Source: an uncultured bacterium
GTDB taxonomy: Bacteria; Patescibacteriota; Andersenbacteria; UBA10190; CAIZMI01
Length of the DNA: 64,000 bases
Reading direction: 5' to 3'
Assembly (NCBI GenBank): GCA_903934015.1
Contig: CAIZMI010000034.1
Location: 20,378-84,377, forward strand
Numbering within the stretch: position 1 is the stretch's first letter; the number at the start of each line of letters is the position of its first letter. Positions 3,581-64,000 of this stretch are shown piece after piece. The notes beneath the pieces were generated by a model, which searched no databases, was not told the origin of the DNA, and saw only the letters and a program-made list of their open reading frames with translations. The translations under genes and the position numbers were made by a program.

Positions 3581-3711
3581 GGAGAGGTGCCAGAGTGGCC
3601 GAATGGGCGTCCCTGGAAAGGACGTAAGTCCGAAAGGGCTTCGCGAGTTCGCCCACGCACCACGCAGGGTGCGGGGCGCCCAGAACCCAACGTGGTTCTG
3701 TGGCGAATCTC
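3581..3711 (+). pseudogene. tRNA-Ser(GGA) pseudo-copy with a 54-nt insertion in the T-loop and a divergent 3' end
   Basis: The first 70 nt are identical to the intact tRNA-Ser downstream (ggagaggtgccagagtggccgaatgggcgtccctggaaaggacgtaagtccgaaagggcttcgcgagttcg). A 54-nt hairpin-containing insert follows, then aatctc, then sequence that cannot pair with the acceptor 5' strand. Confidence 0.55.
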
Positions 3712-3751
3712 CTACCTATTCTTTAAAACTTTAGAAAAAATAATCAGCTTT

Positions 3752-3837
3752 GGAGAGGTGCCAGAGTGGCCGAATGGGCGTCCCTGGAAAGGACGTAAGT
3801 CCGAAAGGGCTTCGCGAGTTCGAATCTCGCCCTCTCC
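3752..3837 (+). tRNA. tRNA-Ser (anticodon GGA), type II with long variable arm
   Basis: Acceptor ggagagg/cctctcc; anticodon loop ctGGAaa; variable-arm hairpin gtaagtccgaaagggcttc; T-arm gcgag-ttcgaat-ctcgc. Confidence 0.85.
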
Positions 3838-3848
3838 GCAAAAATAAT

Positions 3849-3877
3849 GAAACGCCCTTGCGGCGTTTTGTTATTTT
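3849..3877 (+). terminator. rho-independent terminator after tRNA-Ser
   Basis: Hairpin aaacgcc-cttgc-ggcgttt followed by a T-rich tract tgttatttt. Confidence 0.6.
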
Positions 3878-3885
3878 GCCTGAGC

Positions 3886-3950
3886 AACCAACTGCTTGGC
3901 TCACGGCGAGATTTGAACGGCAAGCGATATCTCGCTCGACTGAATACGAA
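3886..3950 (+). repeat. tRNA-linked module 2, Ser copy: hairpin containing aactgcttg, then an antisense Ser T-arm (gcgagatttgaac), then a gaacggcaagcgat hairpin
   Basis: Same architecture as 6305-6365 downstream of tRNA-Lys (caactgcttg…gaatcgaacggcgagcgat). Confidence 0.5.
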
Positions 3951-4398
3951 GTATCGCAATCCCTAAAATTTGACTGAAATCGAGGGACTAGACACACTAA
4001 AACAAGTTGTTCTATTAGAAAATCCTTGAACAGGAGGCTGTTGATCATGTATAGAACACTCTTTTTGTGGTGGGTTGGGCAAAAACGCAAATTTCAAGCC
4101 TCGTTCGTCCACATTCGGCAACTTCTCTGGTTTCACGTGCGATTGCGCGGTAACGACTTTCATCCGTCACTACAACTTAACGCGAAGCGACGTTCTTCAA
4201 TGACACAGAGCGAACAAGATGGTTACGATTTGGAACTTACTCGGCGTCGCAGTTTGGCTCGCGAACTTGAACTGAAAAATGAAGACCTTGCCCGCACGCG
4301 CTTAGCAAACACTAAGACCTAATCTCTCAGTGTTTTTTTAACTTCCCTTTTTGCTTTATTTATCCTACGCTGGCCATATCAATCCTTAATCAAAATTA

Positions 4399-5157
4399 AT
4401 GTTTTACTACATTTTAATCGCCATCGTCGTCCTAATTTTCAGCTCTCTACGCATCATCAAAGAATACGAGCGTGCGGTAGTGTTCTTCCTTGGTAAATAT
4501 CAAGCCGTCCGTGGCCCCGGTCTCATCTTTCTTATTCCTGTTTTGGAGAAAATGAACAAGACCACCCTTCGCACAATCACGATGAATATTCCATCGCAAA
4601 AAATCATTACCCGTGACAACGTCTCTATCGATATCGCAGCGGTTGCCTACTATCACATTGTCGACCCGATGAAATCGGTAATTGCCATCGAAAACGTCTA
4701 CGATGCCGTGAATCAAATCAGTCAAACGACCGTTCGTAATGTTGTTGGTCAGTTTACACTCGACCAACTGCTCGCCCAAACCAGCGCCATCAATGTCCAA
4801 ATCAAGAACGTAATCGATGAACACACTGAACCATGGGGAGCGCAAGTAACAGCAGTGGAAATAAAAGACATCGTTCTGCCGGACAACATGCAACGCGCAA
4901 TGGCGAAGGAGGCCGAAGCCGAACGCGAACGTCGCGCCAAGGTTGTTGCTGCCGAAGGTGAATTCCAAGCTGCCCAAAAACTCGGCGAAGCGGCGGATTT
5001 AATCGCCGCCCATCCGGTGGCATTGCAATTAAGAACACTCCAAACAATGGCGGAAATCAGCGTGGAGAAAAATTCCACAATCATCTTCCCCGCCCAATTT
5101 ATGACAACAGTCCAAGAGGCAGTAAAAATGATATCCAATGACGGAATAATTAAATAA
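4399..5157 (+). CDS. SPFH/band-7 (stomatin/prohibitin-like) membrane protein
   Basis: N-terminal TM helix, SPFH core, and a C-terminal coiled coil (AEAERERRAKVVAAEGE). Confidence 0.85.
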   Translation: MFYYILIAIVVLIFSSLRIIKEYERAVVFFLGKYQAVRGPGLIFLIPVLEKMNKTTLRTITMNIPSQKIITRDNVSIDIAAVAYYHIVDPMKSVIAIENVYDAVNQISQTTVRNVVGQFTLDQLLAQTSAINVQIKNVIDEHTEPWGAQVTAVEIKDIVLPDNMQRAMAKEAEAERERRAKVVAAEGEFQAAQKLGEAADLIAAHPVALQLRTLQTMAEISVEKNSTIIFPAQFMTTVQEAVKMISNDGIIK

Positions 5158-5318
5158 CCGCGACAAACACATCAATACTAACCCACACCACTTCCAATAA
5201 AGGCCATCCGTGGTCACATTGGAAGTGGGTGCGACAATTCAAATTTGCCTTAATTTATAAGCACTTACATATTTTTTACCTGTTCAACTAATTAAAACAT
5301 CTGTGCTATTATTATGGC

Positions 5319-5888
5319 ATGGCAAAACCAACACTGGATTTGCGCCCAAACAGCACAAATGAAACAGAGATTGATGAAGAAATAGCACAATCACCCGCTC
5401 GTTCTGGTGGCAGCTTAAGCCATGGCCAAATTTATTTGGAATGGGAAGCGCCGGAATATGTTATTTATAAAAAAACTACTGTTTGGTATATCGGTTTCGG
5501 AGTTATGTTGGCGTTACTTCTTTCCATTGCGTTTATTATGCAAAGTTTCCTTACCGGAATTATTTTCCTGCTATCTGGTATACTAATCTTTTTTCACAGT
5601 GAACGACCGCCAAAAATCGTTTCATATGATCTGCGTACCACAGGAATAAGAATCGATTCCCGCATTTATCTTTATCGCGAATTATCAGCCTTCAATATTG
5701 TTGAACACGGTTCCAGTATTTACTTGCTATTAAAAAGCAAGCGCCTTTTAATGCCGTTAATCCACATTCCTCTCGCCGATAACCTTAACCATGAAGAAGT
5801 TTTGGACGCCATTTCTAATCACCTGCCCCAAGATCCGGATTTTGTTGAACCGTTAGCGGATGTGTTAGCGCACTGGCTGGGATTTTAA
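5319..5888 (+). CDS. hypothetical membrane protein
   Basis: 189-aa ORF with two predicted TM helices, co-oriented with the band-7 gene; no recognisable motif. Confidence 0.45.
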   Translation: MAKPTLDLRPNSTNETEIDEEIAQSPARSGGSLSHGQIYLEWEAPEYVIYKKTTVWYIGFGVMLALLLSIAFIMQSFLTGIIFLLSGILIFFHSERPPKIVSYDLRTTGIRIDSRIYLYRELSAFNIVEHGSSIYLLLKSKRLLMPLIHIPLADNLNHEEVLDAISNHLPQDPDFVEPLADVLAHWLGF

Positions 5889-6084
5889 AAAAACAAAACA
5901 TACAACTAACAACAAATGAAGGTTGTATTTTTTCATAAAATAAAGCAGAATAGGTTATCGTTTTACGCGCTCGTAGCTTCCCACTCCGCTCAATCTCTGG
6001 ATTGAGCTACGAGGGACAAGTATTGGAATAATAAACCATTGCCTGTCCACCGTAGCTCCGTTCCGCAGAATGGAGCGAAGGTGG

Positions 6085-6157
6085 GCGCTCGTAGCTCAAT
6101 TGGCAGAGCAGGGGCCTCTTAAGCCCAAGGTTGAAGGTTCGATTCCTTCCGAGCGCA
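6085..6157 (+). tRNA. tRNA-Lys (anticodon CTT)
   Basis: Acceptor gcgctcg/cgagcgc; D-arm gctc-aattggc-agagc; anticodon loop ctCTTaa; T-arm gaagg-ttcgatt-ccttc; discriminator A. Confidence 0.85.
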
Positions 6158-6426
6158 CTCTCGTTGATTAGTTTTGCGAAGCAAAACAATCCAAACGTAC
6201 ATAAAATAGCTCCACGTCCTGTGGAGCTATTTTACACAAGAATCAATGAACTCCGAAAGTTTGCGACAAGAGACGCAAAATTTCGGAGCTACCTTTGATT
6301 GCAACACAACTGCTTGTGTTGCGTGAAGGAATCGAACGGCGAGCGATGTTATGCAGAACCGCTCGCCGATGGCCAGATACTTGCGTATCAACGCGAGTTT
6401 CGAGGCCGATTCCTTCCGAGCGCACT
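6158..6426 (+). repeat. tRNA-Lys-linked miniature element ending in a 20-nt direct repeat of the tRNA 3' end
   Basis: cgattccttccgagcgcact occurs at 6140-6159 (inside the tRNA) and again at 6407-6426. In between are the conserved module 1 (two hairpins, acgtacataaaat, ttttacacaagaatca), a ctccgaaa…tttcggag hairpin, the aactgcttg hairpin, and an antisense T-arm gaaggaatcgaac. Confidence 0.6.
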
Positions 6427-6478
6427 AATATTAAACAAGCGCAGACCAAAGTCCGCGCTTATTTTTTATTTTAAATAA

Positions 6479-6691
6479 CTATTTTACGAGCTCAACAACA
6501 GATACTTTCAATACCGCGGCAATATTCTTAAGCGTCAAAATTGTCGGGTTTCCATTATCACCGGATTCAATCTTAGAAATTGTAATGTTTGATACATCCG
6601 CTTTTTTTGCCAATTCCGCCTGAGAAATCTTTCTTTCTTGTCGAAAGGCTCTGATACGCTTAGCGAATGGTTGTAGGGGCTTTTTTGCCAT
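6479..6691 (-). CDS. XRE-family helix-turn-helix transcriptional regulator (Cro/cI-like)
   Basis: 70-aa protein with a typical HTH_3 segment (ISQAELAKKADVSNITISKIESGD). Confidence 0.8.
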   Translation of the reverse strand: MAKKPLQPFAKRIRAFRQERKISQAELAKKADVSNITISKIESGDNGNPTILTLKNIAAVLKVSVVELVK

Positions 6692-6727
6692 ATGTTTTAT
6701 TTGATAAATTATAAAATGGTACTGCTT

Positions 6728-6761: not shown

Positions 6762-6799
6762 CTGTATGTAACCACCCACAGGTTAAAGCAAACAACGCA

Positions 6800-6833
6800 T
6801 TAAGGTCCGACCCTTGCAAAGGTCGGACCTTAA
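6800..6833. repeat. 34-bp near-perfect palindrome (copy 1 of 2)
   Basis: ttaaggtccgacccttgcaaaggtcggaccttaa. The second copy at 50788-50821 is perfect. Confidence 0.7.
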
Positions 6834-7022
6834 TCACGAAGAACACAACACGACGGCAATATTTGCTGATACAAACAAAATTCCTCCACCCGTGAACGGT
6901 TACTCCCGTATCTTCTGTTACAAACCGAAACCGACGGGGCGACAAAACAAACCCTCGCTATCCCTGTGACTAAGCGTCAAAAAACGATAAATTTTTTTAT
7001 TATGTCTGCCCCCCAACCTCTC

Positions 7023-9282: not shown

Positions 9283-9849
9283 TTAACCACCAAACTTGAT
9301 TACCCACTGTTTAAACTTAATAACACCATCTTTATTGTGTTTTTTAATTCCCGCCAATATTTCTTCACTACTTTTTTCCACTGCCCCACCGTCACCTTTT
9401 TTAGAAAAAAATTTATCAGAAAAGCAAATAATCTCTTCCTCTATCGTGACCGGTTGCATATTACGTTTTGGCAATTTCAATTTCTGATTTTCAATATCTT
9501 CAACCGACAACCCCACACCAACATGTCGCTCACAAACAAGAGCGTGCTTTGCAAGACCTTCTTTTTCCAACAACTCTCTTCCTAAGTAGCCGTGACAAAT
9601 GTAGGGCATCGTTCCATGACAATCAATCTCAGGAGCACTGGTTAAAAATATCCCCACGTCATGCAACATCCCCGCTTCTTCAATAAACTGCATATCGGGA
9701 TTAAATTGTGGTACCTTCCTTGCAACCTCAAGCGCCTTGTTTGTCACCGCCAAACTGTGCGCCAATAAAATCGAATAAGCCCGCGAATCGGGCAAGTAGT
9801 ATTTTTGCAGTAATTTAATGGGTTCCATTTTTAAATTTTTCAGAACCAT
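9283..9849 (-). CDS. HD-domain phosphohydrolase
   Basis: H…HD motif (LLAHSLAV…MLHDVGI). The start is taken at the internal Met (MVLKNLKMEPIKLL) to avoid overlapping the upstream gene. Confidence 0.7.
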   Translation of the reverse strand: MVLKNLKMEPIKLLQKYYLPDSRAYSILLAHSLAVTNKALEVARKVPQFNPDMQFIEEAGMLHDVGIFLTSAPEIDCHGTMPYICHGYLGRELLEKEGLAKHALVCERHVGVGLSVEDIENQKLKLPKRNMQPVTIEEEIICFSDKFFSKKGDGGAVEKSSEEILAGIKKHNKDGVIKFKQWVIKFGG

Positions 9850-9883
9850 AAAATCGACTTCTTTTCGAATAACAAAAAATTTC

Positions 9884-11053
9884 CTATCGATTTCCTTTTG
9901 CCCGATTGTGCGTCTTACACAACATCTCACAATTTTTAGCTGTTGTTTTACCACCCTTGCTCCACGCCGATACGTGATCGGCTTCCATTTCACCAAAACT
10001 CCAAATTTTACACTTGTTAGCATCATGGCCAATTACACAATTTGAGCAATTTGATTGACCTTTTTTCTCTGCTTTAGCGGTCTGTGTTGAGTAAATACTT
10101 CTCTTTGTTGCTTCATCAAAGATTCGAACGTCAAGCAATTTTGTGTCAGTGGAGCCGCCGAGAATATACTCAAAAATGCCTTTGCGATTTTTGACGTACG
10201 GATCACCATAGAGCTTTCGTACCTCGCCTGTCACCTTAACGGGATCATAAGCTTTCTTATGGTATTGCTCATATAGTCGCCCCCACTCCAGTCCTCGCAT
10301 CTCACTTTCAACATCTATAAACACACTTGAAACCCAATCAACTACACTACCGAAATACCTTTTCAGCTCGGCAACATTTTTATCAAAACGATGTCGGCTC
10401 ATATAATCGCCAACGTTGCCTTTGCTTACCCAATCAAGCGCACGCTCCAAAAAATCCTGCCTGTTAACACTACCCGCTACATACGCGCCCCATTTTTGGA
10501 TGTTGGCATTTTGGCTATTGCTAAACTCTTCTTTACCAAGCGTCACAAATGGCCCAGAATACACGGCGTTAAGCAACTCCTGATTATTAAGTGGAACTCC
10601 GGCGATGTTGATTGTTTTAAACCATTCTTTTATCTCGCTTTCTTTCCCTTCGCATTCGTAAATAAGCAATGTTGTTATTAAAATTTTATCCTGCTTGTCT
10701 TTTGCCATACCACTAAAATTTTGTGGATTGCCGTTTTCATCTTTGATGGCAAATTTATCAGTCACAAAACGTCCAATACTTGTTATACGTTGTTGCCCAT
10801 CCAAAACTTCCAGCCCATCGTCATCGACTTTATTAAAATAAATTAGGCCAATCGGATAGCCCTTAAGGATTGACTCAATAACAGCTACTTCTTTTTTACC
10901 GCCGTCGGAAGAATATATGTAGTTGCGCTGATATTCTGGCTGAATCGTTAATTTGCCAGACAAGCCAAACAACCCCTTGCCCTCCAATTCGTTATAAACG
11001 AATCCTTCGCAAATAGCTTTGATGGTAATTTCGATTTTCAAAGTAGTTTTCAT
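9884..11053 (-). CDS. DUF262 (ParB-like, DGQQR motif) plus C-terminal HNH endonuclease; GmrSD-like nuclease
   Basis: The [11 protein letters not shown] motif is in the N-terminal half. The C-terminus has an HNH signature ([14 protein letters not shown]…[11 protein letters not shown]…[15 protein letters not shown]). The start codon at 11053-11051 lies 1 nt after the upstream methyltransferase stop. Confidence 0.7.
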
Positions 11054-11054
11054 A

Positions 11055-12230
11055 TTATTTTTTTTTATGTCTAATGAGTACTCTTTGATAAACTTTTTCA
11101 TGTAAACCAGCTCGAATAACTACTCCACTTGCATTCAAATCATAAACTCCCCTTTTTTTGAATTTATCTAAATATGCTTGCTTACATTCCGTTGATTTGT
11201 ACACTTTTGTTTTTAGTTTATATAAATCTTCGTTTTCACACATCCCAACAATACCAAACTGTTCTGGGGAGTGTTTATCAAGAAAACTAATCGGTACACC
11301 CATTAATCCGTTGTAATCACTTGGAATATTTTTTACTAAAGATACTTCTAAGGCATTATAATTATCGTATTTTTCAAATGGTTTTTTCGTTACAAACTTA
11401 ATAATCTCGGCTTCAGTCATGAGTGGCAACGGCTGATGACGACGTCCATGATCAAGATTGGTGAACCAACGAACACCTTGCACTCGGGTGATATAAACTT
11501 TCTTACCTCTCTCATTTGTTTTAATTTCACGAACTTGATCCAAATTAGCAATCTTTTCGGGTATCTCAAAAAACATCGCGCCAGCATTGACTTTGTAATT
11601 GTTGCCCAACCACACTTTATTCTCTTTAATTAGTGGAAATATTTCTTTGTAGGTAATTGCATTCAAGTTGCCAATGATCAAAAACTTTTTATCATAATCA
11701 ACAAGTTGTTTTATATACTCGCGAAACAGGCTAAACGGAGGATTTGTTACCACAATATCAGACTGCTTCAGAAATTCTATAGATTCATTGCTACGGAAAT
11801 CGCCGTTTCCTTTAAGCAGAGTTGTTACATTTTGATCCTGCCTCAACAAACACTCTATATCCTCAAGGTTTACTGCACCATCATTATTTAAATCTTTTAC
11901 CTCATTGATTTCAATTTTGAACGGCTGTTTTCTAGTGAACCTTCTTAATCCTTCTATCCCAGACAACGGAAATATAGTGCCGGTAATAGGTGATGGAACA
12001 TAACTTGTAGTAATAAGTTTTTTAAGTCCAATATTATTGAATTTTAATACAAAGTATTTGAAAAAATTACTTTCATACGGATCGTCACAGTTGCAATACA
12101 CTACTTTGCCTCGAAACACATCAGGATTGTATTCCAAATACGCTTCAATCTCTTTCTGGATATCTACGAATTGCGTATAGAACTCGTCGTTCTTTACTCT
12201 TTTTGCGTTAGTAAGATTTTTGTTTGCCAT
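11055..12230 (-). CDS. DNA methyltransferase, adenine-type (EcoRI-methylase-like N-terminus, NPPF catalytic motif)
   Basis: KNDEFYTQ near the N-terminus and the motif IV sequence [13 protein letters not shown]. Confidence 0.75.
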
Positions 12231-12245
12231 AATTTTATTCCTATT

Positions 12246-12452
12246 CTACGGATAAAATTCAAATTCGCTCATTATTTTTTTATTATCGACAATCTGCTCC
12301 TGTATCGCATCTCGAACAGAAGCAATCATCTCGATATCCCACTTTATTTTTTTGGACGAAGGAATAAAACTTTGCATCAATTCGAAAATTTGATTATCAA
12401 CAAAATCCTGCCTTTCTATTTGCTTATTAGTTAATTTGGACATTTTTATCAT
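12246..12452 (-). CDS. small hypothetical protein (69 aa)
   Basis: The ORF is trimmed to its internal Met because the longer version overlaps tRNA-Ser(GCT). Confidence 0.25.
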   Translation of the reverse strand: MIKMSKLTNKQIERQDFVDNQIFELMQSFIPSSKKIKWDIEMIASVRDAIQEQIVDNKKIMSEFEFYP

Positions 12453-12580: not shown

Positions 12581-13633
12581 TTATTTGTTCATCTTTCTCA
12601 AGTGCTTTGGATTATGAGAACCAATAAGTTCTATGTATTGTTTTACAGCTGCCCTACTCTCGATAAAAATATCTCGATCCCGCATATTTGCCCAAACACC
12701 GATTTTGCGGAGAGATTCGTGAACTGAATTAAGCAAAGGCGGAGAAGCGGATGTAAAACTAATCTTTTTGTAGCGATAATCTTTGCCTCTTATACGATAT
12801 TGATGCCAATAAACCGAACCATCCGTATCAAAAAGACCTCGAATACAAGGAATTAAATAATTCCGCTTTCTCTTGATCCACATTGGAATATCTATTTTTT
12901 GTCTAATTTTGTTTCCCTTAACCAGACCCAAGTGTTCTATACAAAAGTGAACCATCTCCGTCCGGCTTACGCGATAATCGTTTGCTAAAGCATCTTTACT
13001 AATTATCACGCTCGGTCTAACTCCAAACAATTTCTGAATTAAACTGCATACAAAGATACCGTATTCATGATCATCATACCTGTGTAACGTAACAGTTAGT
13101 TGATAACGGGTTATTCCACCATCACCAAGCATCAATCCGACAAACTCGGCTAATTCCGGTGATTTCATAGGCTTTCTAAACGGCAAACTTTTCCAAAGTA
13201 TTTTGTGTTCTTGATATTTCCCTTTCTCATTCCACCATTTTGTCCACTGCACTCGGCGATAATCCTCATCCATACCAATCCGTCCATATTTTTTAAACAT
13301 TGCTTTACCACCCAAACTGCCAATTTTTTCAAGGCGTTTATTCCATTTTAATAAACTGGCAGAGGTAGGTATTTGTACTCCGCTTTTTTGAGCTAGCGTT
13401 TTAGCGTGGATAAATGACATGTGATACTTCTCTCTCTTCCAATCACAAAGCGTACGCCTATTAATGGCCAACAAACCGGCTAAGAATGGTGTTGATACAT
13501 TTAATTTTGAAGCAACGTTTTCAATAAATTTGCGTTGCTCTTCAGGTTCAAAAATGATCCTGTCTAACTTATCCACTTCATCTATCATGTGGTAATTATA
13601 CAACAAATACGAACATTTTACGAACGTCATTGT
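12581..13633 (-). CDS. double-motif LAGLIDADG homing endonuclease, free-standing
   Basis: Two LAGLIDADG motifs, FVGLMLGDGGI and IRGLFDTDGSV. The start is taken at the internal Met (MTFVKC…) because the 5' extension of the ORF covers a conserved structured non-coding element. Confidence 0.7.
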   Translation of the reverse strand, partial: TMTFVKCSYLLYNYHMIDEVDKLDRIIFEPEEQRKFIENVASKLNVSTPFLAGLLAINRRTLCDWKREKYHMSFIHAKTLAQKSGVQIPTSASLLKWNKRLEKIGSLGGKAMFKKYGRIGMDEDYRRVQWTKWWNEKGKYQEHKILWKSLPFRKPMKSPELAEFVGLMLGDGGITRYQLTVTLHRYDDHEYGIFVCSLIQKLFGVRPSVIISKDALANDYRVSRTEMVHFCIEHLGLVKGNKIRQKIDIPMWIKRKRNYLIPCIRGLFDTDGSVYWHQYRIRGKDYRYKKISFTSASPPLLNSVHESLRKIGVWANMRDRDIFIESRAAVKQYIELIGSHNPKHLRKMNK

Positions 13634-13639
13634 TTTTGC

Positions 13640-13737
13640 ACAATCCGATTCTTGTGCAAAACAGCATTCGCGTTTAGCGAATGCTGTTTTGTGTACATTT
13701 TTTTGTTTCACTAAGCGAAACAAATCTCGAGTGTCCC
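13640..13737 (-). repeat. conserved tRNA-linked module 1 (Arg-locus copy)
   Basis: The minus strand reads ctcgagatttgtttcgcttagtgaaac…aatgtacacaaaaca, a hairpin (cagcattcg…cgaatgctg), then ttttgcacaagaatcgga. The element at 63660-63760 after tRNA-Glu is near-identical, and the Lys copy at 6158-6245 is related. Confidence 0.6.
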
Positions 13738-13830
13738 CGGCAGGACTTGGCCTCGCCTCAAAAATACTGATGTATTTTTGGGCTGGCCACCGCCTCGTGT
13801 TATCTTCGAATAACACTCCGGCGTTCAAGT
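13712..13830 (-). repeat. palindromic element: inverted copies of the tRNA-Arg 3' end (15 bp, ccccggcaggacttg) flanking a two-hairpin core
   Basis: The core (cgccggagt…hairpin…acgaggcggtggccagccc…hairpin…gaggcgaggcc) also occurs inside the interrupted tRNA-Arg copy at 14035-14137. Both hairpins show compensatory base changes between the two copies. Confidence 0.55.
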
Positions 13831-13889
13831 CCTGCCGGGGGATTTAGAAAAAAGACAATCGCACCGCGATTGCCATTTTTCTAAATCTG

Positions 13890-13963
13890 TGTCCCCGGCA
13901 GGACTTGAACCTGCAACCTTCAGCTCCGCAAGCTGACGCTCTGTCCAGTTGAGCTACAGAGAC
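13890..13963 (-). tRNA. tRNA-Arg (anticodon GCG, inferred)
   Basis: Acceptor gtctctg pairs with cggggac through two G-U pairs. D-arm gctc-aactggac-agagc; anticodon stem tcagc/gctga with loop ttGCGga; T-arm gcagg-ttcaagt-cctgc; discriminator A. Confidence 0.7.
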
Positions 13964-14017
13964 ATAATTAGTCTCTTTTTTGTAATGATATCATTTTAAT
14001 TCTTTTTTGAAATCTAC

Positions 14018-14190
14018 CAAGCCGGCAGGACTTGGCCTCGCCTCTCGGAGTGTTGATACACTCCTCGGGCTGGCCACCGCCTCGTATTGCTTGCGAGCAA
14101 TACTCCGGCGCTGAAAAACCATTAAGGGTTTTTCAGCCTGCAACCTTCAGCTCCGCAAGCTGACGCTCTGTCCAGTTGAGCTACAGAGAC
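14018..14190 (-). pseudogene. interrupted tRNA-Arg copy: nucleotides 1-53 identical to the intact gene, a ~105-nt structured insert in the T-loop, then 12 nt of tRNA identity before diverging
   Basis: Plus strand cctgcaaccttcagctccgcaagctgacgctctgtccagttgagctacagagac matches the intact copy. The insert replaces ttc of the T-loop. The 3' acceptor strand is cggcttg, which cannot pair with the 5' strand. Confidence 0.55.
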
Positions 14191-16626: not shown

Positions 16627-16736
16627 TGAGCGTAAACTTATAAGTCAGATCTAAATATAATTTACATAGAAACTACATAAGACGCAAGACAAGAGTCGCG
16701 AATAAAAATACCATCCGTGGTCTTGCCTAGTGTTTT

Positions 16737-16916
16737 AGGCAACTGACTTAAATAAATTGTCAATATTCTGTTCAATACGCTTTGAATACGAGTACTGCGA
16801 CCGAACGAAAGCTTGAAGCGTACTAGCAGTACGTTAAGAGATTTAGTGACCGAGCAGTGCTTGTAGTCAAAGATGTATAGAAAATAAGATGGATAGGTTA
16901 TTTACGTCAGTCGCCT
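16737..16916. repeat. MITE-like 180-bp element with ~19-bp terminal inverted repeats (copy 1)
   Basis: About 80% identical over its full length to 57719-57898. The ends are aggcaactgacttaaataa and ttatttacgtcagtcgcct. Confidence 0.65.
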
Positions 16917-18269: not shown

Positions 18270-18566
18270 ATGCAAAATACTATAAAAAGACAGCACTCAC
18301 CAGAGTTCAAATCGCAAGTAGCAATAGAGGCGATAAAAGAAGTTGAGACGATTGCACAGATCGCATCCAAGCATTCAATCCACCCGACCCAAATCAACAA
18401 GTGGAAAAAAATAGCACAGGATGGTTTGGCCATATTGTTCTCCGGCAAACAAGATGTCGAGCTGAAGAAAAAAGATGAGCTGATTGAACAGTTATACAAA
18501 AAAATCGGTAAACGTGAGGTCGAACTTGATTGGCTTAAAAAAAAGACTGGCCTTCTCGACAACTGA
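18270..18566 (+). CDS. IS3-family transposase OrfA (HTH plus leucine zipper)
   Basis: MQNTIKRQHSPEFKSQVAIEAIKE… matches the IS3 OrfA N-terminus. A slippery A6G run sits at 18539-18545. Confidence 0.8.
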   Translation: MQNTIKRQHSPEFKSQVAIEAIKEVETIAQIASKHSIHPTQINKWKKIAQDGLAILFSGKQDVELKKKDELIEQLYKKIGKREVELDWLKKKTGLLDN

Positions 18567-19386
18567 AAAACGCAGTTTGATCGAGCAAGAAAACCCCGCG
18601 CTTTCCATCGCTTCGCAATGTTCTTTATTAAAACTTCCGCGTTCCACATTCTACTTTCCGCCTAAGTTAATTCTGCCGGAAAAGTCCGTTACGCTGATGC
18701 ATAATATCGATGAGATCTATACTGATTTCCCGTACTATGGTGGCAGAAAGATTAAGGTGGAATTGGTAAAACGTTTCAAGAAGATTGTCGGTCGCAAAAC
18801 AATCCGCAAGCTGATGCGGATCATGGGTCTGGAAGCGATCTATCCGAAGCCAAACACGAGCAAACCAAATCAGCAACATGCTACTTACCCGTATCTCCTG
18901 AAGGGTATCATCGCCGCTTATTCCAATCATATTTGGGGCACTGATATCACATACATCCGGGCTGGCAAATACTGGTTTTATCTTTCGGCAATTCTTGACT
19001 GGCATTCCCGTTATGTTGTCAGCTGGACGCTGTCCGAAAATATCGATACCGCGCTTTGTTTGGAAACTCTGGAAAAAGGACTGGCAATTGCCAAACCCCT
19101 TATCCACAATTCCGATCAAGGCAGTACATATACGGCGGAGGAATATCTAAACCATCTCAAGCAAGCCGAGGTGCAAATCAGTATGGATGGTGTTGGCAGA
19201 TGCATGGACAACATCTTCACGGAACGATTATGGCGGACGGTGAAATACGAAGAAGTCTATCTGCACGCGTACGGCAGTTTCAAAGAAGCTATGCAATCGT
19301 TGAAATTATACTTTAATACATACAACGAAAAACGGGTGCATCAAGCACTCGAATACCGCACACCGGCAGAAGTGTACTTTAAATAA
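18484..19386 (+). CDS. IS3-family transposase OrfB (DDE integrase core, rve)
   Basis: DDE region …HNSDQGSTYTAEEY…ERLWRTVKYEEVY… OrfB is in the +1 frame relative to OrfA, not the expected -1. Confidence 0.75.
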   Translation: MNSYTKKSVNVRSNLIGLKKRLAFSTTEKRSLIEQENPALSIASQCSLLKLPRSTFYFPPKLILPEKSVTLMHNIDEIYTDFPYYGGRKIKVELVKRFKKIVGRKTIRKLMRIMGLEAIYPKPNTSKPNQQHATYPYLLKGIIAAYSNHIWGTDITYIRAGKYWFYLSAILDWHSRYVVSWTLSENIDTALCLETLEKGLAIAKPLIHNSDQGSTYTAEEYLNHLKQAEVQISMDGVGRCMDNIFTERLWRTVKYEEVYLHAYGSFKEAMQSLKLYFNTYNEKRVHQALEYRTPAEVYFK

Positions 19387-41436: not shown

Positions 41437-41739
41437 TTAGTTTCCCAAATGTCTCTGCAATAAAAATTTTGTCGTTAACTTTAATTTTCTATCAATGCGT
41501 AAATCATCCACGATTACTGCCAAATTTTGCCAATCTTCTTCTGTGAAATAACGCCACAACAGACGGTTGATGAAACGACTGTAATATTGACGTTCTTCCG
41601 CCGTGTTCCGCCATGGCTGTTTGCACAACATTCCGTCTCAGTTGGTCAGTGCCTCAATATCCGAGGGCGAATAATTCATCATAAATATAGTTTATCATTA
41701 ACGCCCGTGATATTGTTAATCTTGGCTATGCACAATTAA
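41437..41739 (-). pseudogene. paralog of the 80-aa small protein at 43719-43961, with TGG to TGA nonsense change
   Basis: Reads MMNYSPSDIEALTN-stop-DGMLCKQPWRNTAEERQYYSRFINRLLWRY…, about 90% identical to the intact copy. The stop codon sits where the paralog has Trp. Confidence 0.5.
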
Positions 41740-43718: not shown

Positions 43719-43961
43719 TTATTTCAAATGTCTTCGCAATAAAAATTTTGTGGTGAGTTTTAGTTTTCTGTCTATGCGCAAATCATCAACGATTTTTGCC
43801 AAATTTTGCCAATCTTCTTCTGTCAAATAACGCCACAACAGACGGTTGATGAAGCGACTGTAATATTGACGTTCTTCCGCTGTATTCCGCCATGGCTGTT
43901 TGCACAACATTCCGTCCCAGTTGGTTAACGCCTCAAGATCCGAAGATGAATAGTTCATCAT
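43719..43961 (-). CDS. small conserved hypothetical protein (80 aa) translationally coupled to the upstream NTase gene
   Basis: ATGA overlap with the 43958-44629 gene. A pseudogenised paralog lies at 41437-41739. Confidence 0.5.
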   Translation of the reverse strand: MMNYSSSDLEALTNWDGMLCKQPWRNTAEERQYYSRFINRLLWRYLTEEDWQNLAKIVDDLRIDRKLKLTTKFLLRRHLK

Positions 43962-44629
43962 AAGGTCGTACTGTTAATTAATTTATCTATTTGTGCTGTA
44001 ACTAATTCAATATTTGTTATGCCGTCACGTAAAAACATCTCCGGCCTTAATTGAAACTGCTCCCTTTTCGCAACAAGCTCGCTTAATAATTTTTCTTCAC
44101 CAATCGTTCCCAAACGAAATTTCTTTTCTGCGATTTCAGCAAGATTACGAAGAGACCAATTTTGTTTTTTTGTAAGAAAGGCAATATCGATATAATCCTT
44201 AATTTCATCTCGCGAACAAAGCGCCGACGCTTTGCCGGCGGCCGCATCTTCCAAACTCGCCGTTGCCAATGTTCCAAACACTACAAAGCTCCCAATTTGG
44301 GAAATATTATCGTGTACCGCGTCAATCACCATTCCACTGGCCTTATCCATCCAACCGCGATCAGTATCGACAATTTGATCAACACCAAAAAGCTCTTGCG
44401 CCAAACGGTGCAACCGGATCATCCGTTGGTTAAATACAAGCGCATCAACTTCCGGATAAGTAAAAAAATCAAGATCATTTGATTGTCGCGGAACAATACC
44501 CAACGCTTTTAATAATGTGCCACCGGTCAAATAAAAAGTACGCGCCAGTTCAACATCGTCAGCCACGTTTTTAATCACCTCCAATTGCGGTTCAGTTAAA
44601 TCTTGCAACTCATCAATTGTTCTAATCAT
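43958..44629 (-). CDS. nucleotidyltransferase of the AbiEii/DUF1814-like toxin family
   Basis: YLTGGTLLKALGIVPRQSNDLDFF resembles the AbiEii GGTAL…R.S.D.DF motif. Confidence 0.55.
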   Translation of the reverse strand: MIRTIDELQDLTEPQLEVIKNVADDVELARTFYLTGGTLLKALGIVPRQSNDLDFFTYPEVDALVFNQRMIRLHRLAQELFGVDQIVDTDRGWMDKASGMVIDAVHDNISQIGSFVVFGTLATASLEDAAAGKASALCSRDEIKDYIDIAFLTKKQNWSLRNLAEIAEKKFRLGTIGEEKLLSELVAKREQFQLRPEMFLRDGITNIELVTAQIDKLINSTTL

Positions 44630-50787: not shown

Positions 50788-50821
50788 ATTACGTATCTTA
50801 AGGTCCGACCTTTGCAAAGGT
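50788..50821. repeat. 34-bp perfect palindrome (copy 2 of 2)
   Basis: ttaaggtccgacctttgcaaaggtcggaccttaa. Confidence 0.7.
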
Positions 50822-50844
50822 CGGACCTTAATGCGATTGTTTTT

Positions 50845-53923: not shown

Positions 53924-53959
53924 ACGTTAATATTATCACATGTGCCGATTAACCGTAGA

Positions 53960-54001
53960 CCACTCCAGGAGCGGAGCAACCTTGCTCCGCTCCTGGAGTG
54001 G
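53960..54001. terminator. long palindromic hairpin (ccactccaggagcggagcaa…ttgctccgctcctggagtgg); probable terminator of the 54129-54944 gene
   Basis: 20-bp stem. A related hairpin lies at 55138-55179. Confidence 0.45.
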
Positions 54002-54128
54002 TGCAAAGGTTCGTTTAGAATCAATCAAACATCCCCCGTCGCCAAGGCTATGGGGGATTATCTTCTTTGAAAAGAAAAAAATCTCCCGTTCGAAGAACGG
54101 GAGAGAAAGAACACTCTGAATGAGCAAA

Positions 54129-55055: not shown

Positions 55056-56504
55056 TTATATTACAAACTCAATCGGTTCCGGGGGTAATGGAATTTGTTC
55101 TTTTTCAGAATACTCTATCGACACTTGCGAACCAGCACCACCTACGAGGTGGAGCAAGTTTGCTCCACCTCGTAGGTGGTCGGAGGCTTCATCCACCACT
55201 TGAATATCCGCGCCTAAACCGCGCAGTTTTTCGACCAATGATTCGTAACCACGTTCAAGTTGATCCACACCACTGATGACCGATGTCCCCTGCGCCATCA
55301 AGGCAGCAATGACATAAACAAATCCTGCCCTCAAATCCGGCACAACCAAATCCACGGCTTTCAAATTAACTGGACCGCGCACTGCTACGCTGTGCTGGTA
55401 ATTCATTCCTTGAAAACGACAGTTATGACCGCCTAAACAATCGGTAAATAAATTTACGTCCGCGCCCATTTTCTTCAAGCCATCAAAATATCCAAAACGT
55501 TTTTCGTGCACCGTTTCATGCACGACCGACATGCCTTCCGCCTGCATCAAAAGCAACGAAAATGGCGGTTGCCAGTCGGTCATAAACCCCGGATGTGTTC
55601 CGGTTTCCATCGTTACGCCTTTCATCTGACCGGTCGAATAAAACCAAATACCGTCATTACTAATTTCAAAAGCCCCGCCGATTTTTCGCAACATATTCAA
55701 GAACGTACGCATACCATGTTGACTTACACCCTTAACAAGAACACTTCCCTTCGTGGCAATTGCCGCGCAAGCAAAAGAAGCTGCCTCAATTCGGTCTGGA
55801 GCAACGCGATGCTCTGCTCCATTGAGTTTAGCCACTCCTTCAACAACAAATGTCCGTTCCGGTTCCAAGAAAATAATCGCGCCCATCTTCTGAAGCAAAT
55901 CAACAAGCTCAATAATTTCCGGCTCGATAGCGGCATTTTTAATAACCGTTTTTCCTTCCGCCAAAACAGCACCAAGCAATAAACTCTCTGTCGTCATGAC
56001 GCTTGGGTATGGCAATTCAATCACCGCGCCATGTAGTTTGTTTGCCTTAAACACTATCGTGTTGCCATTCTCAACTATTTCCGCGCCCATTGCCCGGTAA
56101 CCAGTGATGTGGAAATCAACCGGTCGCGGACCAATCTTGTCGCCACCTTCTATGGGAATTTCGGCATGACCAAAACGATGCAAAAGAGGACCGGCCAATA
56201 AAATTGGAATTCTGTGTTTGCCGGAAAAAACAGCTGGAACTGTACTGGTTTGCAATGTCGGAGAAACAAGATGCACAGATGATTCCTTTGTGCCGTCCCA
56301 CATTGCCTGCGCGCCAAGGGAATTGAGCAAACTCATTGTTAACTCAACTTCCCCGATATGAGGGATATTAGAAAGTTTCACCGGTTCTTTTGTTAGAAGC
56401 GAAGCCACCATCATTTTTGTAACGGTATTTTTAGAGCCACCAACGGTAACAGACCCCTTTAAAGGGTTTCCACCAGTTACGATATATTGATTTGACATAG
56501 ACAA
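55056..56504 (-). CDS. murA: UDP-N-acetylglucosamine 1-carboxyvinyltransferase (paralog 2) with ~45-aa C-terminal extension
   Basis: MSMSNQYIVTGGNPLKGSVTVGGSKNTVTKMMVASLL… The extension (…HLRGGANLLHLVGG…) is translated through the palindromic hairpin at 55138-55179. Confidence 0.85.
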   Translation of the reverse strand: MSMSNQYIVTGGNPLKGSVTVGGSKNTVTKMMVASLLTKEPVKLSNIPHIGEVELTMSLLNSLGAQAMWDGTKESSVHLVSPTLQTSTVPAVFSGKHRIPILLAGPLLHRFGHAEIPIEGGDKIGPRPVDFHITGYRAMGAEIVENGNTIVFKANKLHGAVIELPYPSVMTTESLLLGAVLAEGKTVIKNAAIEPEIIELVDLLQKMGAIIFLEPERTFVVEGVAKLNGAEHRVAPDRIEAASFACAAIATKGSVLVKGVSQHGMRTFLNMLRKIGGAFEISNDGIWFYSTGQMKGVTMETGTHPGFMTDWQPPFSLLLMQAEGMSVVHETVHEKRFGYFDGLKKMGADVNLFTDCLGGHNCRFQGMNYQHSVAVRGPVNLKAVDLVVPDLRAGFVYVIAALMAQGTSVISGVDQLERGYESLVEKLRGLGADIQVVDEASDHLRGGANLLHLVGGAGSQVSIEYSEKEQIPLPPEPIEFVI

Positions 56505-57674: not shown

Positions 57675-57718
57675 ATAGAAACATTATAACAAAAACCCTA
57701 CAAAAATACCAACTACTT

Positions 57719-63587: not shown

Positions 63588-63659
63588 GGCCCTATCGTCT
63601 AACGGCTAGGACACGAGACTTTCATTCTCGTAATCGGGGTTCGATTCCCCGTGGGGCTA
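63588..63659 (+). tRNA. tRNA-Glu (anticodon TTC)
   Basis: Anticodon stem cgaga/tctcg with loop ctTTCat; T-arm cgggg-ttcgatt-ccccg; acceptor 3' strand tggggct; 4-nt variable loop. Confidence 0.8.
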
Positions 63660-63964
63660 CTCGAGATTTGTTTCGCTTAGCGAAACTATATAATGTACAC
63701 AAAACAACCAAACATCCCGTTTGGTTGTTTTGCACAAGAATCGAAGAACTCCGAGACTCTAGGCGCTCGATAGCGCCGAGTCTCGGAGCAGCATTGATTA
63801 ATGCCCTTTACGGGTGTTTTTAAATATCTTCTGTCGAATATGGGGAATCGAACGGTATTTTGAAAACATGAACTGCTTCATGTTTTCAAAAACCGAGGCT
63901 TCGCAGGAGGAGTTGCGCATCGAGCCGAAGCGAGGCGCAGCGACGGAAGCGAAGGATTCCCCGT
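63660..63964 (+). repeat. tRNA-Glu-linked miniature element: conserved module 1 plus hairpins, an antisense T-arm, and a 19-nt direct repeat of the tRNA 3' end
   Basis: Contains ctcgagatttgtttcgcttagcgaaac…aatgtacacaaaaca, a hairpin, then ttttgcacaagaatcgaa. A hairpin ctccgagactc…gagtctcggag follows, then the antisense T-arm ggggaatcgaac. cgattccccgtggggctac occurs at 63641-63659 and again at 63946-63964. Confidence 0.6.
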
Positions 63965-64000
63965 GGGGCTACCAAGTAATAAAAACACCGTGCCAAAAGC

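Follow-up and report, generated by a model that had tools for sequence, protein, structure and literature searches.

The two-hairpin module that stands behind several tRNA genes in this 64,000-nt stretch of DNA (the window) is probably the tRNA-proximal end of mobile, gene-less, hairpin-rich cassettes that land in tRNA T-loops, and it carries a putative terminator. The module, M1, is about 86 nt long and consists of a linker, hairpin 1, a second linker, hairpin 2 and the sequence cacaagaatc. It is not a stand-alone trailer. M1 forms the left end of non-coding cassettes of 0.15-0.3 kb with the order tRNA, M1, hairpin 3, hairpin 4, an inverted copy of the tRNA T-arm (anti-T), a structured core, a direct copy of tRNA positions 56/57-73 and the original flank. 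M1 and hairpin 3 make up module A; hairpin 4, anti-T and the Y-shaped core make up module B. Of the window's five tRNA genes, four have such cassettes. On our best reading they represent an undescribed family of mobile, T-loop-anchored tRNA cassettes in uncultivated CPR-like bacteria.

The initial annotation had placed copies of M1 behind tRNA-Glu, tRNA-Lys and a 3' fragment of tRNA-Arg. All three are present, at 63660-63743 (+), 6158-6245 (+) and 13731-13646 (-), respectively, and each starts exactly 3' of the discriminator base, but the direct and inverted repeats of the tRNA 3' part at these loci had been missed.

Cassette anatomy at the tRNA loci

The intact tRNA-Glu(UUC) gene (63588..63659, +; ARAGORN, Rfam tRNA 60 bits) has its discriminator at 63659, and an M1 copy of subfamily a lies behind it (63660..63743, +; 100.7 bits with covariance model R1). 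The linker ctcgagatttg leads to hairpin 1 (63670-63686), a further linker to hairpin 2 (63700-63732), and cacaagaatcg completes the module. Hairpin 3 (63746..63789, +) has a conserved closing stem, ctccga.../...tcggag, and a variable interior. The anti-T segment (63842..63853, +) is the reverse complement of tRNA-Glu positions 52-63 (ggggaatcgaac), and hairpin 4, with its tetraloop in aactgctt, and a type-2 core occupy 63854..63954 (+). This core has nested stems and the conserved loop tcgaRc(c)gaagYgaRc, as compared by eye with loci L003, L005, L007 and L008 on related contigs. A direct copy of the tRNA-Glu 3' part (63955..63972, +), running from T-loop position 57 to the discriminator plus c, constitutes an exact 18-nt repeat at +294, and the original flank, which starts with cca, comes next.

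The same order is found behind the intact tRNA-Lys(CUU) gene (6085..6157, +; ARAGORN, Rfam). Here M1 belongs to subfamily d (6158..6245, +; R1 95.7 bits), with hairpin 1 at 6171-6187 and hairpin 2 at 6202-6234. The following segment (6248..6322, +) contains hairpin 3 (about 6251-6288), the linker tacctttgatt and hairpin 4 (6301-6322). Anti-T (6325..6337, +) is the reverse complement of tRNA-Lys positions 53-65 (gaaggaatcgaac), and the type-1 core (6338..6406, +) is made of a P1 stem with a conserved loop, gatggccag, the P2 hairpin and ttcgaggc, with GGCC/GGCC as helix P3. The direct copy (6407..6425, +) extends from position 56 to the discriminator plus c, an exact 19-nt repeat, and behind it the native flank taatattaaac leads to a terminator (about 6433-6467). 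Upstream of the gene, an element at 5967..6084 (+) carries a direct copy of positions 1-12 and an inverted copy of positions 4-16, and its motif ccaccgtagct..agcgaaggtgg abuts the tRNA-Lys 5' end. An insert similar to this 5' element occurs at L020, where a repeat of 9 nt from the tRNA-Arg 5' end flanks it.

Two cassettes are stacked behind the intact tRNA-Arg(GCG) gene (13890..13963, -; ARAGORN, Rfam). The left end of cassette 1 is a palindromic terminator-like hairpin (13841..13888, -), followed by anti-T (13823..13840, -; the reverse complement of tRNA-Arg positions 54-71), copy B of the type-1 core (13750..13822, -) and an 18-19-nt direct copy of the tRNA-Arg 3' part, from position 57 to the discriminator (about 13732..13749, -). 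This direct copy is what the initial annotation had called a 3'-end fragment. An M1 copy of subfamily a (13646..13731, -; R1 97.8 bits), with hairpin 1 at 13721-13705 and hairpin 2 at 13691-13657, opens the second, truncated cassette, and the promoter region of an HTH-LAGLIDADG gene follows. In addition to M1, the interval 13640-14190 contains a pseudo-tRNA-Arg (14022..14190, -). It consists of tRNA positions 1-54 (14190-14137), the hairpin ctgaaaaaccc..ggtttttcag (14136-14111), copy A of the type-1 core (14110-14035) and positions 57-69 (14034-14022), with a degenerate acceptor end.

A comparable arrangement is seen for tRNA-Ser(GGA). A pseudo-tRNA-Ser(GGA) (3581..3712, +) comprises positions 1-71, a T-loop insert and a degenerate 3' part, the insert being a 53-nt GC-rich double hairpin (3652-3704); an insert of this type also lies inside a pseudo-tRNA-Lys at L021. 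The intact tRNA-Ser(GGA) gene follows at 3752-3839. Behind it, a module B without M1 was read by eye at 3879..3990 (+), with a hairpin bearing the aactgctt loop, anti-T ggcgagatttgaac (3905-3918) and a core-like stretch, and with no clear 3' copy.

The placement of M1 is strict. All full M1 copies that adjoin an ARAGORN-called tRNA (14/14) start directly after the discriminator, and the remaining copies lack their 5' part or are preceded by a 3' copy or by a 3' end that has degenerated. The orientation is always tRNA-sense and the start always position 74. The 18-mer at the M1 end occurs three times at no more than 3 mismatches, against a chance expectation of 0.18. Exact direct repeats of 18-19 nt, from T-loop position 56/57 to the tRNA end, bound the inserts at Lys, Glu and Arg, and likewise at L002, L003, L005, L007 and L020 (the last read from the sequence). 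Tandem arrays of cassettes occur at L003, L006 and L007 as well as at the tRNA-Arg of the window. Subfamily a was found at Glu, Arg(TCT), Gly(CCC), Gly(GCC), Lys(CUU) and an Arg(GCG) copy, and the M1 subfamilies combined at no fewer than 12 tRNA species. Inside the cassettes, hairpin 3 is joined through tacctt.. to hairpin 4 or anti-T, and these same junctions are seen at different tRNAs and in different genomes. Many copies of M1 or of the cassette are truncated or decayed, and in the window and at L003 intact copies are preceded by pseudo-tRNAs that carry T-loop inserts. At L023, module-B-like units stand behind tRNAs with a recognisable 3' copy absent, and at L007 the sequence directly behind tRNA-Ser weakly resembles the native flank; these two cases suggest that some module B units possibly arose, or were retained, in another way.

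Pairing in the cassettes and a candidate terminator

The initial annotation had taken stems that differ in sequence but remain paired as a sign of selection on structure. Its hairpin-2 stems (cagcattcg/cgaatgctg, aaccaaac/gtttggtt and agctccac/gtggagct) and its hairpin-1 variants were correctly read, but hairpin 2 had been drawn too short, and the lower stem, formed by the conserved flanks caaaaca/tgttttg and covarying to taaaata/tatttta, had been overlooked. Both hairpins showed strong compensatory variation once related metagenome contigs had raised the number of copies to 19-21, and selection for, or maintenance of, pairing is supported by many more copies than the original three. In the M1 helices (alignment A2, 18 copies), 97.4% of cells were paired against 85.4% in shuffles and double-change cells numbered 48 against 15 (0/500), a contrast to be read with the caveat that relatedness among sequences can by itself lift them above shuffles, even where no structure exists. 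The type-1 core gave 87.3% paired against 75.0% and 32 double-change cells against 11.7. When the partners of the M1 helices were slid as a control, 32-43% of cells were paired. Compensatory changes were found in 10 of the 21 M1 pairs, and the upper stem of hairpin 2 occurs in at least 10 different versions, every one paired. The type-1 core contains the elements S0, P1, P2 and P3, with double changes in 14 pairs; P3, a non-palindromic long-range helix (GGCY/RGCC), covaries. The unpaired stretches aatgtaca and cacaagaat are conserved between the covarying M1 hairpins, and in hairpin 4 and the cores the loops are conserved and the stems variable.

Such hairpins might have no selected function. 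If they were quasi-palindromes kept perfect by replication template switching, the covariation would be mutational in origin. The stems consist almost wholly of Watson-Crick pairs on either strand and have tight loops of 3-5 nt, and the window has further palindromic repeats (6796-6835 and 50798-50835, 53959-54002, 55137-55180); together with the caveat on the shuffles, these observations speak for such an origin. We nevertheless consider this origin highly improbable, given that at least ten unrelated hairpin-2 stems share one position between conserved flanks, and given the low pairing in the slid controls, the variable stems around conserved loops, the covariation of the non-palindromic P3 and the strict placement and orientation relative to tRNAs.

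A different question is whether M1, or the whole cassette, is primarily a functional RNA from the tRNA 3' external spacer, set free when the tRNA 3' end is processed, with its spread being secondary. It would be either a small RNA or a processing signal, which the initial annotation had named as its other candidate. Spacer-derived small RNAs are known in E. coli (3'ETS-leuZ). The fixed tRNA-sense orientation with its start at position 74, the conserved unpaired aatgtaca and cacaagaat, the conserved loops of hairpin 4 and the cores, and the 97% conservation of module A where neutral sites differ by about 30% all agree with such a role. However, sense and antisense strands of the cassettes fold with equal stability and G.U makes up 1-5% of pairs on either strand, so that covariation alone is no proof of RNA. 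No described RNA family matches, in keeping with the remark of the initial annotation that it knew of no element of this form: Rfam 15 at the gathering score found tRNA alone in the window and 11 related loci, and E-value scans of the three loci returned chance-level matches only. A hammerhead-like CTGATGA at L004 was dismissed for want of Rfam support. The many truncated or decayed copies, the identity of orthologous copies in stems free to vary elsewhere and the direct and inverted tRNA repeats, which an RNA function leaves unexplained, also weigh against it, and we regard a primary RNA function as unlikely.

Judged by its design, hairpin 2 of M1 is probably the transcription terminator of a rebuilt tRNA gene. 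It is composed of an A-tract, a variable GC-containing stem and a T-tract (tgtttt/tatttt), in the manner of intrinsic (bidirectional) terminators. Hairpins of the same build come next to tRNAs that have no M1 (3851-3875 in the window, Trp at L006, Ser and Arg at L007, Arg-tcg at L003, and L023), and M1-bearing tRNAs have no other terminator ahead of hairpin 2. In a terminator scan, hairpin 2 was called on the antisense side at Lys and Arg but not on the sense strand, where its T-tract pairs with the A-tract, becomes part of an extended stem and leaves no tail. Ordinary intrinsic terminators differ from hairpin 2, which is part of a conserved mobile module and has further conserved sequence, cacaagaatc and hairpin 3, beyond its stem. 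A role as terminator would leave the stem sequence free to change as long as pairing is kept. A possible promoter in the M1 linker (TAnAAT) was rejected, being weakly conserved and situated directly before hairpin 2.

Signs of mobility and the T-loop as a probable entry site

At L027 an intact tRNA-Lys(CUU) is followed by aatattaaaaac, a flank that in the window adjoins the 3' copy and not the tRNA, as judged over 12 nt of flank, aatattaaa(a)ac, at a contig end. This is an empty site, and L026 and L025 are filled orthologues of it. Occupancy differs elsewhere too: tRNA-Arg(GCG) has four configurations (the window, L007, L019 and L020), tRNA-Ser(GCU) is empty in the window and carries two cassettes in L007, and tRNA-Lys is followed by M1d in the window and by M1a in L007. 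Between the window and L026, module A is 97.4% identical, whereas the adjacent HTH gene is 89% identical, with 30% of third codon positions differing, the VTT gene 73.5% and module B 70.5%. M1a of the window and L007 is about 94% identical, against 71% for the HTH-LAGLIDADG proteins of both genomes. M1-type sequence is thus 94-97% identical between genomes whose genes differ by 10-30%. Since this identity of orthologous copies extends to stems that vary freely elsewhere, it points to a recent common origin rather than to structural constraint. The initial annotation had offered, as one candidate, the terminus of tRNA-targeting integrative mini-elements. The repeats, the arrays, the empty site, the differing occupancy and the copies more alike than their hosts bear this out; the classical sense of "integrative", with an integrase specific for one tRNA, does not suit gene-less cassettes whose M1 subfamily sits at many tRNAs.

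In the mechanism we propose, a cassette would enter at T-loop position 56/57, directly 3' of the near-universal GTTC, where crossover or cleavage would take place, presumably with the help of a trans-acting enzyme. After insertion, the tRNA body would be joined to a fresh copy of positions 57-73 with the left end of the cassette at once behind it, be it module A or no more than a terminator hairpin, and the right end (module B) would abut the displaced original 3' part and the native flank. The 57-73 copy is more readily seen as target-derived, by way of a staggered break, than as cassette-borne, because one M1 subfamily occurs at five or more tRNA species. Newcomers would insert beside the tRNA and shove older cassettes outward, giving tandem arrays. 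For the rebuilt tRNA gene, M1 would act in cis by supplying a 3' trailer, and its hairpin 2 would replace the terminator that the insertion separates from the gene.

A simple insertion gives no explanation for the anti-T segment. One tentative and rather doubtful extension is that tRNA genes in this CPR clade are generic landing pads for structure-defined cassettes, in which the folded anti-T/57-73 site mimics a T-arm duplex and a T-loop-specific strand transferase or endonuclease acts at GTTC|R57. Anti-T paired with the 57-73 copy would close the Y-shaped core, an integron- or CTX-like logic transferred to T-loops, with non-coding hairpin modules such as M1 as payload. The by-products would then be flipped tRNA genes together with tRNA fragments, direct, inverted or on the 5' side.

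The cassettes may also be driven by an endonuclease that cuts tRNA T-loops, through homing-type spread or break repair, and not by a recombinase; repair would have produced the direct and inverted tRNA fragments, and M1 and the cores would be DNA copied in at the break site. The last base of anti-T is the complement of position 53/54, and the direct copy begins with 56/57; seen as two versions of the right-hand break end, they differ by a 3' overhang of 2-4 nt around GTTC. LAGLIDADG enzymes leave an overhang of this kind, and an HTH-LAGLIDADG gene lies within the tRNA-Arg/Ser cluster of the window. L021 shows the order pseudo-tRNA-Lys with T-loop insert, GIY-YIG gene, intact tRNA-Lys, and the pseudo-tRNAs upstream of intact copies in the window and L003 could have a similar origin. 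However, no endonuclease gene lies inside the M1 cassettes, and a rebuilt tRNA with an intact T-arm would still be cleavable. The HTH-LAGLIDADG gene was rejected as the cassette's own: its homologues lie 16-25 nt upstream of tRNA-Ser(GCU) in distant genomes without M1, so that it is a conserved neighbour of that tRNA and does not travel with the cassettes, and in L007 it abuts a truncated core and not M1. We therefore hold an endonuclease-driven origin to be improbable.

The cassettes themselves contain no ORF, and no recombinase, fitting transposase, reverse transcriptase or guide-RNA nuclease was found in or beside any of them. Pfam scans that covered most window ORFs of at least 110 aa gave a single kind of transposase, IS3-type, and no tyrosine or serine recombinase, IntI integrase or HUH gene. 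Another view is that the cassettes are decayed attL/attR scars of large integrase-bearing islands or prophages and are not mobile themselves. Partial tRNA repeats and stacked remnants are typical of such islands, whose integrases are tRNA-specific (tycheposon preprint); many cassette copies are truncated, and the tRNA-Ser(GCU) gene of L016 has its 3' end overlapped by the gene of a large serine recombinase. Scars, however, would hardly share identical internal junctions at different tRNAs in different genomes, and none of the 27 loci showed a longer form in which genes separate M1 from module B. The presence of one M1 subfamily at five tRNA species or more is at odds with tRNA-specific integrases, and the copies are far more alike than their host genomes, which leaves this view with a quite small probability. 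No excised form or circle junction was seen.

Several other candidates were considered and rejected. Read on its opposite strand, module B might be taken for a tRNA-like gene, but the T-stem partner is missing. A retroviral-type primer-binding site does not fit an anti-T that stops short of the tRNA 3' end, nor does a mimic of the acceptor/T-arm minihelix fit a stem of 8 to 15 bp that often has no acceptor strand. For an IS110 bridge RNA or a TnpB/Cas12k guide RNA, the gene is absent and the guide would target the cell's own intact tRNA gene.

Relation to known mobile elements

Among known systems, the cassettes resemble the tRNA-targeting integrative elements (genomic islands, tycheposons, cis-mobilisable elements of the CIME type) in their insertion in the tRNA 3' part with the tRNA rebuilt, in the partial tRNA direct repeat and in the piling up of remnants as older arrivals are pushed outward. 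As with integrase-borne elements, a direct repeat of the tRNA 3' part bounds the insert and the native flank lies behind the distal copy. They differ from these elements in being 0.15-0.3 kb long and gene-less with no integrase nearby, in placing one M1 subfamily at many tRNA species and in carrying an inverted T-arm copy in every unit. Integron cassettes likewise form arrays of small units beside a fixed entry site with the newest unit proximal, and attC, too, is a cis element defined by a conserved fold with covarying stems and not by sequence; the type-1 core resembles it as an imperfect palindrome whose fold is kept while its sequence varies. Anti-T ends in ATCGAAC, which matches the RYYYAAC box at 6 of 7 positions, but this motif lies at the inner end of the stem, whereas the attC boxes pair at the hairpin base. 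The GTTRRRY partner box is absent (the 3' side reads GGCCGAT), the scanned window ORFs gave no IntI with attI and Pc, and the cassettes enter at a tRNA T-loop and contain no ORF. The folded single-stranded attP of CTX-phi (an IMEX) offers another parallel, as it has two inverted target-like segments that can fold into a mimic of the duplex target, and it forms tandem copies. The distance between anti-T and the 3' copy is 69-112 nt (about 90 nt in CTX-phi attP sites), and the two can pair over 8-15 bp. CTX-phi, however, targets dif, recombines by XerCD and has a single-stranded replicative form, whereas the target of the cassettes is the tRNA T-loop, and the resemblance is one of anatomy alone.

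Like MITEs and REP/BIME repeats, the cassettes are short, non-coding, structured and repeated, and lie at gene 3' ends. Unlike MITEs they have no terminal inverted repeats (the ends are ctcgagatt.. and ..gaggc/..gcgaag) and no 2-10-bp target duplication, what is duplicated being 18-20 nt of tRNA, and unlike REP/BIME they have no GTAG/CGTC head, no related IS or RAYT, and a strict start at tRNA position 74. HUH elements of the IS200/IS605 and IS91 types insert 3' of a fixed tetranucleotide without duplication; the cassette junction is 3' of GTTC and GAAC stands at a hairpin foot, yet a tRNA-derived repeat is present. Insertions in tRNA genes are also known from the same broad lineage as group I introns of Patescibacteria, which are self-splicing and lie in the anticodon loop (35/36) (PMC13011429). 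The cassettes, in contrast, sit at the T-loop and 3' end, the interrupted tRNA copies are pseudogenes with degenerate acceptor ends, and Rfam scans of the window and related loci gave no match to Intron_gpI.

The family appears to be narrow, as M1 was found neither in GTDB species genomes nor in more distant Paceibacteria loci. The exact M1 pattern and the core pattern each had 0 matches in viral contigs and 0 in GTDB genomes, and a second M1 pattern had 0 in viral contigs. In blastn searches, the Glu locus (tRNA plus cassette) matched phages in its tRNA part alone and the Lys cassette had no match in plasmids. Literature searches did not turn up a description of these elements.

If the proposed reading is true, the cassettes would be among the smallest site-specific mobile units known in bacteria, and they would make unusual use of the conserved T-loop of many tRNA genes instead of one tRNA. 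Their stems, variable yet always paired, amount to a ready-made set of variants on which a function as terminator or as folded-DNA site could be tested. Such mobility would be relevant to tRNA gene annotation and to CPR genome assembly, and it would point to an enzyme activity that recognises T-arm DNA. It would also explain tRNA loci in these reduced genomes as hotspots of rearrangement, with their pseudo-tRNAs, inverted fragments and flipped tRNA genes.

tRNA-linked cassettes and their neighbours in the window

Five tRNA genes are present in the window (Ser-GGA, Lys-CUU, Ser-GCU, Arg-GCG and Glu-UUC; ARAGORN and Rfam), and four of them carry cassette-type material; tRNA-Ser(GCU) is clean. 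The initial annotation had placed the module M1 (linker, hairpin 1, linker, hairpin 2, cacaagaatc) behind three tRNA sequences, and it is present at all three: directly 3' of the tRNA-Glu discriminator (63660-63743, plus strand), directly 3' of tRNA-Lys (6158-6245, plus strand) and directly 3' of a 19-nt repeat of the end of tRNA-Arg (3' side; 13731-13646, minus strand). The 18-mer that ends M1 occurs three times in the window at three or fewer mismatches, against 0.18 expected. The hairpin stems listed there were read correctly, but hairpin 2 had been drawn too short: the flanks caaaaca/tgttttg form a lower stem, which covaries to taaaata/tatttta in the Lys copy.

tRNA-derived repeats are also present at each M1 locus of the window. 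At the Lys and Glu loci, the intact tRNA is followed by M1, hairpin 3 (closing stem ctccga/tcggag), hairpin 4 (aactgctt in its loop), an inverted T-arm copy (anti-T; 12-13-nt reverse complement ending in GAAC), a structured core of 60-70 nt, a 3' copy and the flank, which contains a terminator at the Lys locus. The 3' copy is exact and spans 18-19 nt, from T-loop position 56/57 through the discriminator. The Arg locus, on the minus strand, runs from a pseudo-tRNA-Arg (14022-14190; positions 1-54, hairpin, core, positions 57-69) through the intact tRNA, a palindromic hairpin, anti-T, core, 3' copy and M1 to the promoter of an HTH-LAGLIDADG gene and the gene itself. A hairpin-4/anti-T/core unit without M1 lies downstream of tRNA-Ser(GGA), and a pseudo-tRNA-Ser(GGA) with a 53-nt T-loop insert lies upstream of it (3581-3712, plus strand).

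Pseudo-tRNAs were also seen at two related metagenome loci, L003 (2617-2810) and L021 (6323-6396). Their 5' part runs up to the T-loop, a hairpin unit is inserted and the 3' part is degenerate; in the window, L003 and L021 an intact copy of that tRNA follows each of them 40-300 nt downstream. Small 5'-end elements occur at tRNA genes as well (window 5967-6084, plus strand; L020 396-500). In these, 9-12 nt of the tRNA 5' end are directly repeated, the D-arm region is present in inverted form, and a common motif, ccaccgtagct..agcgaaggtgg, abuts tRNA position 1.

The HTH and double-LAGLIDADG protein (335 aa; 12581-13588, minus strand) has more than 700 homologues, and its promoter region contains two GTTCG boxes. 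In every context examined (window, L007, L010, L013, L015, L016, L018 and L019) 16-25 nt separate the end of the gene from tRNA-Ser(GCU) downstream of it, a spacing kept even with proteins at 43-47% identity. We rejected the gene as part of the cassette; it is a conserved neighbour of tRNA-Ser(GCU), and the two look like a conserved gene-tRNA pair. Directly downstream of this tRNA, a defence-type island (9283-12440, minus strand) encodes an HD protein, a GmrSD-like nuclease with HNH, an EcoRI-type adenine methyltransferase and a small ORF; it is missing at that position in L007 and L023. At L016, a large serine recombinase gene (5029-6602) overlaps the tRNA-Ser(GCU) 3' end and may mark an ordinary integrated island; by gene calls rather than DNA comparison, L015 and L017 have no such gene there.

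Elsewhere in the window, a 38-nt perfect-stem palindrome (cgcattaaggtccgacc.ttgcaaaggtcggaccttaatgcg) occurs in two copies, 97% alike and ~44 kb apart (6796-6835 and 50798-50835). Two perfect palindromes with 21-nt arms and a common centre, gagcaa..ttgctc, adjoin two EPSP-synthase-family (MurA-like) genes (53959-54002 and 55137-55180). Two minus-strand genes, a VanW-like gene and a 168-aa ORF, each have a copy of a 182-nt intergenic repeat upstream (16735-16916 and 57717-57898; 82-83% identity); the repeat has no Rfam match and may be a shared leader or non-coding RNA. Parts of two adjacent minus-strand genes, one of them adjoining an AbiEii-type toxin gene, fall within a 239-nt direct repeat (41446-41684 and 43725-43963; 89% identity). 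The sole transposase found in the window is of the IS3 family (HTH_21 and rve; 18484-19386, plus strand).

Two separable modules in related genomes

A strict M1 pattern gave 12 matches on 9 metagenome contigs and none in viral contigs or GTDB species genomes; additional loci were collected through neighbouring proteins. The covariance model proposed in the initial annotation was built from 19 copies and recovered 21 good ones, with none in more distant Paceibacteria-type loci. Fourteen copies begin directly 3' of an intact tRNA (Leu, Gly-GCC twice, Gly-CCC, Lys-UUU, Lys-CUU twice, Arg-TCT, Arg-GCG, Thr-GGT, Thr-CGT, Tyr, Phe and Glu), and the remainder are 5'-truncated or stand behind either a 3' copy or a degenerate 3' end. 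The family is known from the window's genome and a few metagenomes or sequencing runs only. Protein neighbours point to a CPR/Paceibacteria-like organism.

Module A (M1 and hairpin 3) abuts a tRNA 3' end in every case. Module B (hairpin 4, anti-T, core and 3' copy) is separable from it and stands behind a plain terminator instead at L003 Arg-TCG, L006 Trp, L007 Ser and Arg, and L020 Arg. Cores are of three types; whichever the type, the core meets tRNA position 56/57 at its right end, and anti-T stops at the complement of position 53/54. Some module B units of L023 miss the 3' copy.

Insertion and probable movement

The insert separates the tRNA body from its native flank and has a copy of positions 56/57-73 on either side. 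At L027, an intact tRNA-Lys(CUU) is followed by aatattaaaaac, the flank found behind the 3' copy in the window; on these 12 nt, at the contig end, L027 would represent the empty site, and L026 and L025 are filled orthologues. Tandem arrays of at least two units, each closed by a 3' copy, occur at L003, L006, L007 and the window Arg locus, with greater decay in the distal copies. tRNA-Arg(GCG) shows four configurations in four relatives, opposite gene orientation among them; tRNA-Ser(GCU) has two cassettes in L007 and none in the window; the M1 subfamily at tRNA-Lys differs between the window and L007; and M1 is absent from L021, a close relative. Identity between the window and L026 is 97.4% for module A and 70.5% for module B, 89% for the adjacent HTH gene (30% of third codon positions changed) and 73.5% for the VTT gene. 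M1 subfamily a is ~94-98% identical at no fewer than five tRNA species and between genomes whose HTH-LAGLIDADG proteins share 71% identity. Together, the empty site, arrays, polymorphism and copy similarity argue that module A probably moved or was transferred recently, independently of module B, and the sequence evidence speaks against M1 as a fixed, vertically inherited trailer.

Rearrangement breakpoints coincide with tRNA genes in the Arg-GCG and Lys neighbourhoods. tRNA-Arg(GCG) has the orientation of the HTH-LAGLIDADG gene in the window (13889-13963) and L007, and the opposite one in L019 (1856-1930), L020 (321-395) and L010 (3850-3923). The HTH gene by tRNA-Lys lies on one side in the window, L025 and L026 and on the other in L007, L021, L023 and L027.

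We propose that the cassette would enter in the T-loop, directly 3' of GTTC, and that the target would be duplicated by a staggered break, with cuts at position 56/57 and after position 73-75. Judged from sequence, we favour this target-derived duplication over a cassette-borne tRNA piece because one subfamily occurs at many tRNA species with the 3' part matching each; gene conversion among the copies could also produce this pattern. Anti-T and the 57-73 copy could fold into a stem mimicking the T-arm duplex and closing a Y-shaped core. An endonuclease-driven route to the cassettes is a live rival, since the inverted and direct copies end at 53/54 and 56/57, an offset equal to a short 3' overhang around GTTC, and since in L021 a T-loop-interrupted pseudo-tRNA-Lys and an intact tRNA-Lys flank a small GIY-YIG gene (6441-6698). 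Among the window ORFs scanned, none was recognised as a recombinase, an HUH enzyme, a reverse transcriptase or a guide-RNA nuclease.

Conserved pairing and comparison with known systems

The covariation reported for the M1 hairpins was kept when more copies were added: 97.4% of cells pair, compared with 85.4% in shuffles and 32-43% with slid partners, and 48 cells are double changes against 15 in shuffles, a count that none of 500 shuffles reached. In the type-1 core, anti-T pairs with the 3' copy to form the closing helix; the other helices are P1, whose loop is conserved, P2, and P3, a long-range helix of GGCY with RGCC that includes C56. Here 87.3% of cells pair (75.0% in shuffles), 32 of them double changes (11.7 in shuffles), and compensatory changes in P1, P2 and P3 distinguish the orthologous cores of the window, L026 and L025, with P3 changing from GGCC/GGCC to GGTC/GACC. 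Folding is about equal on the sense and antisense strands, and G.U pairs are scarce on either (1-5% of pairs); both features fit RNA, folded or cruciform DNA, and palindromes whose perfect pairing is maintained by templated repair.

Hairpin 2 runs from an A-tract through a GC-containing stem to a T-tract, a design common to the hairpins behind M1-less tRNA genes of these genomes, and the interval from the tRNA to hairpin 2 contains no other terminator. From this native-like design and position, we infer that hairpin 2 is a putative terminator brought by the cassette, a role that would leave the stem sequence free and the pairing fixed. A simple terminator scan left it uncalled on the sense strand because the T-tract falls inside the extended stem.

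The nearest known kinds, namely tRNA-integrating islands, integron cassettes, folded-attP elements, terminators and MITE/REP repeats, each have some features in common with the cassettes but fail at least one defining feature. Integron attC and CTX-phi attP are folded recombination sites which the predicted stem and the core it closes resemble in anatomy; their defining boxes were not found with the cassettes, nor their enzymes among the window ORFs scanned. [quoted passage not shown] Our literature search found no description of these cassettes, and we rate them as a small non-autonomous element that targets tRNA genes.
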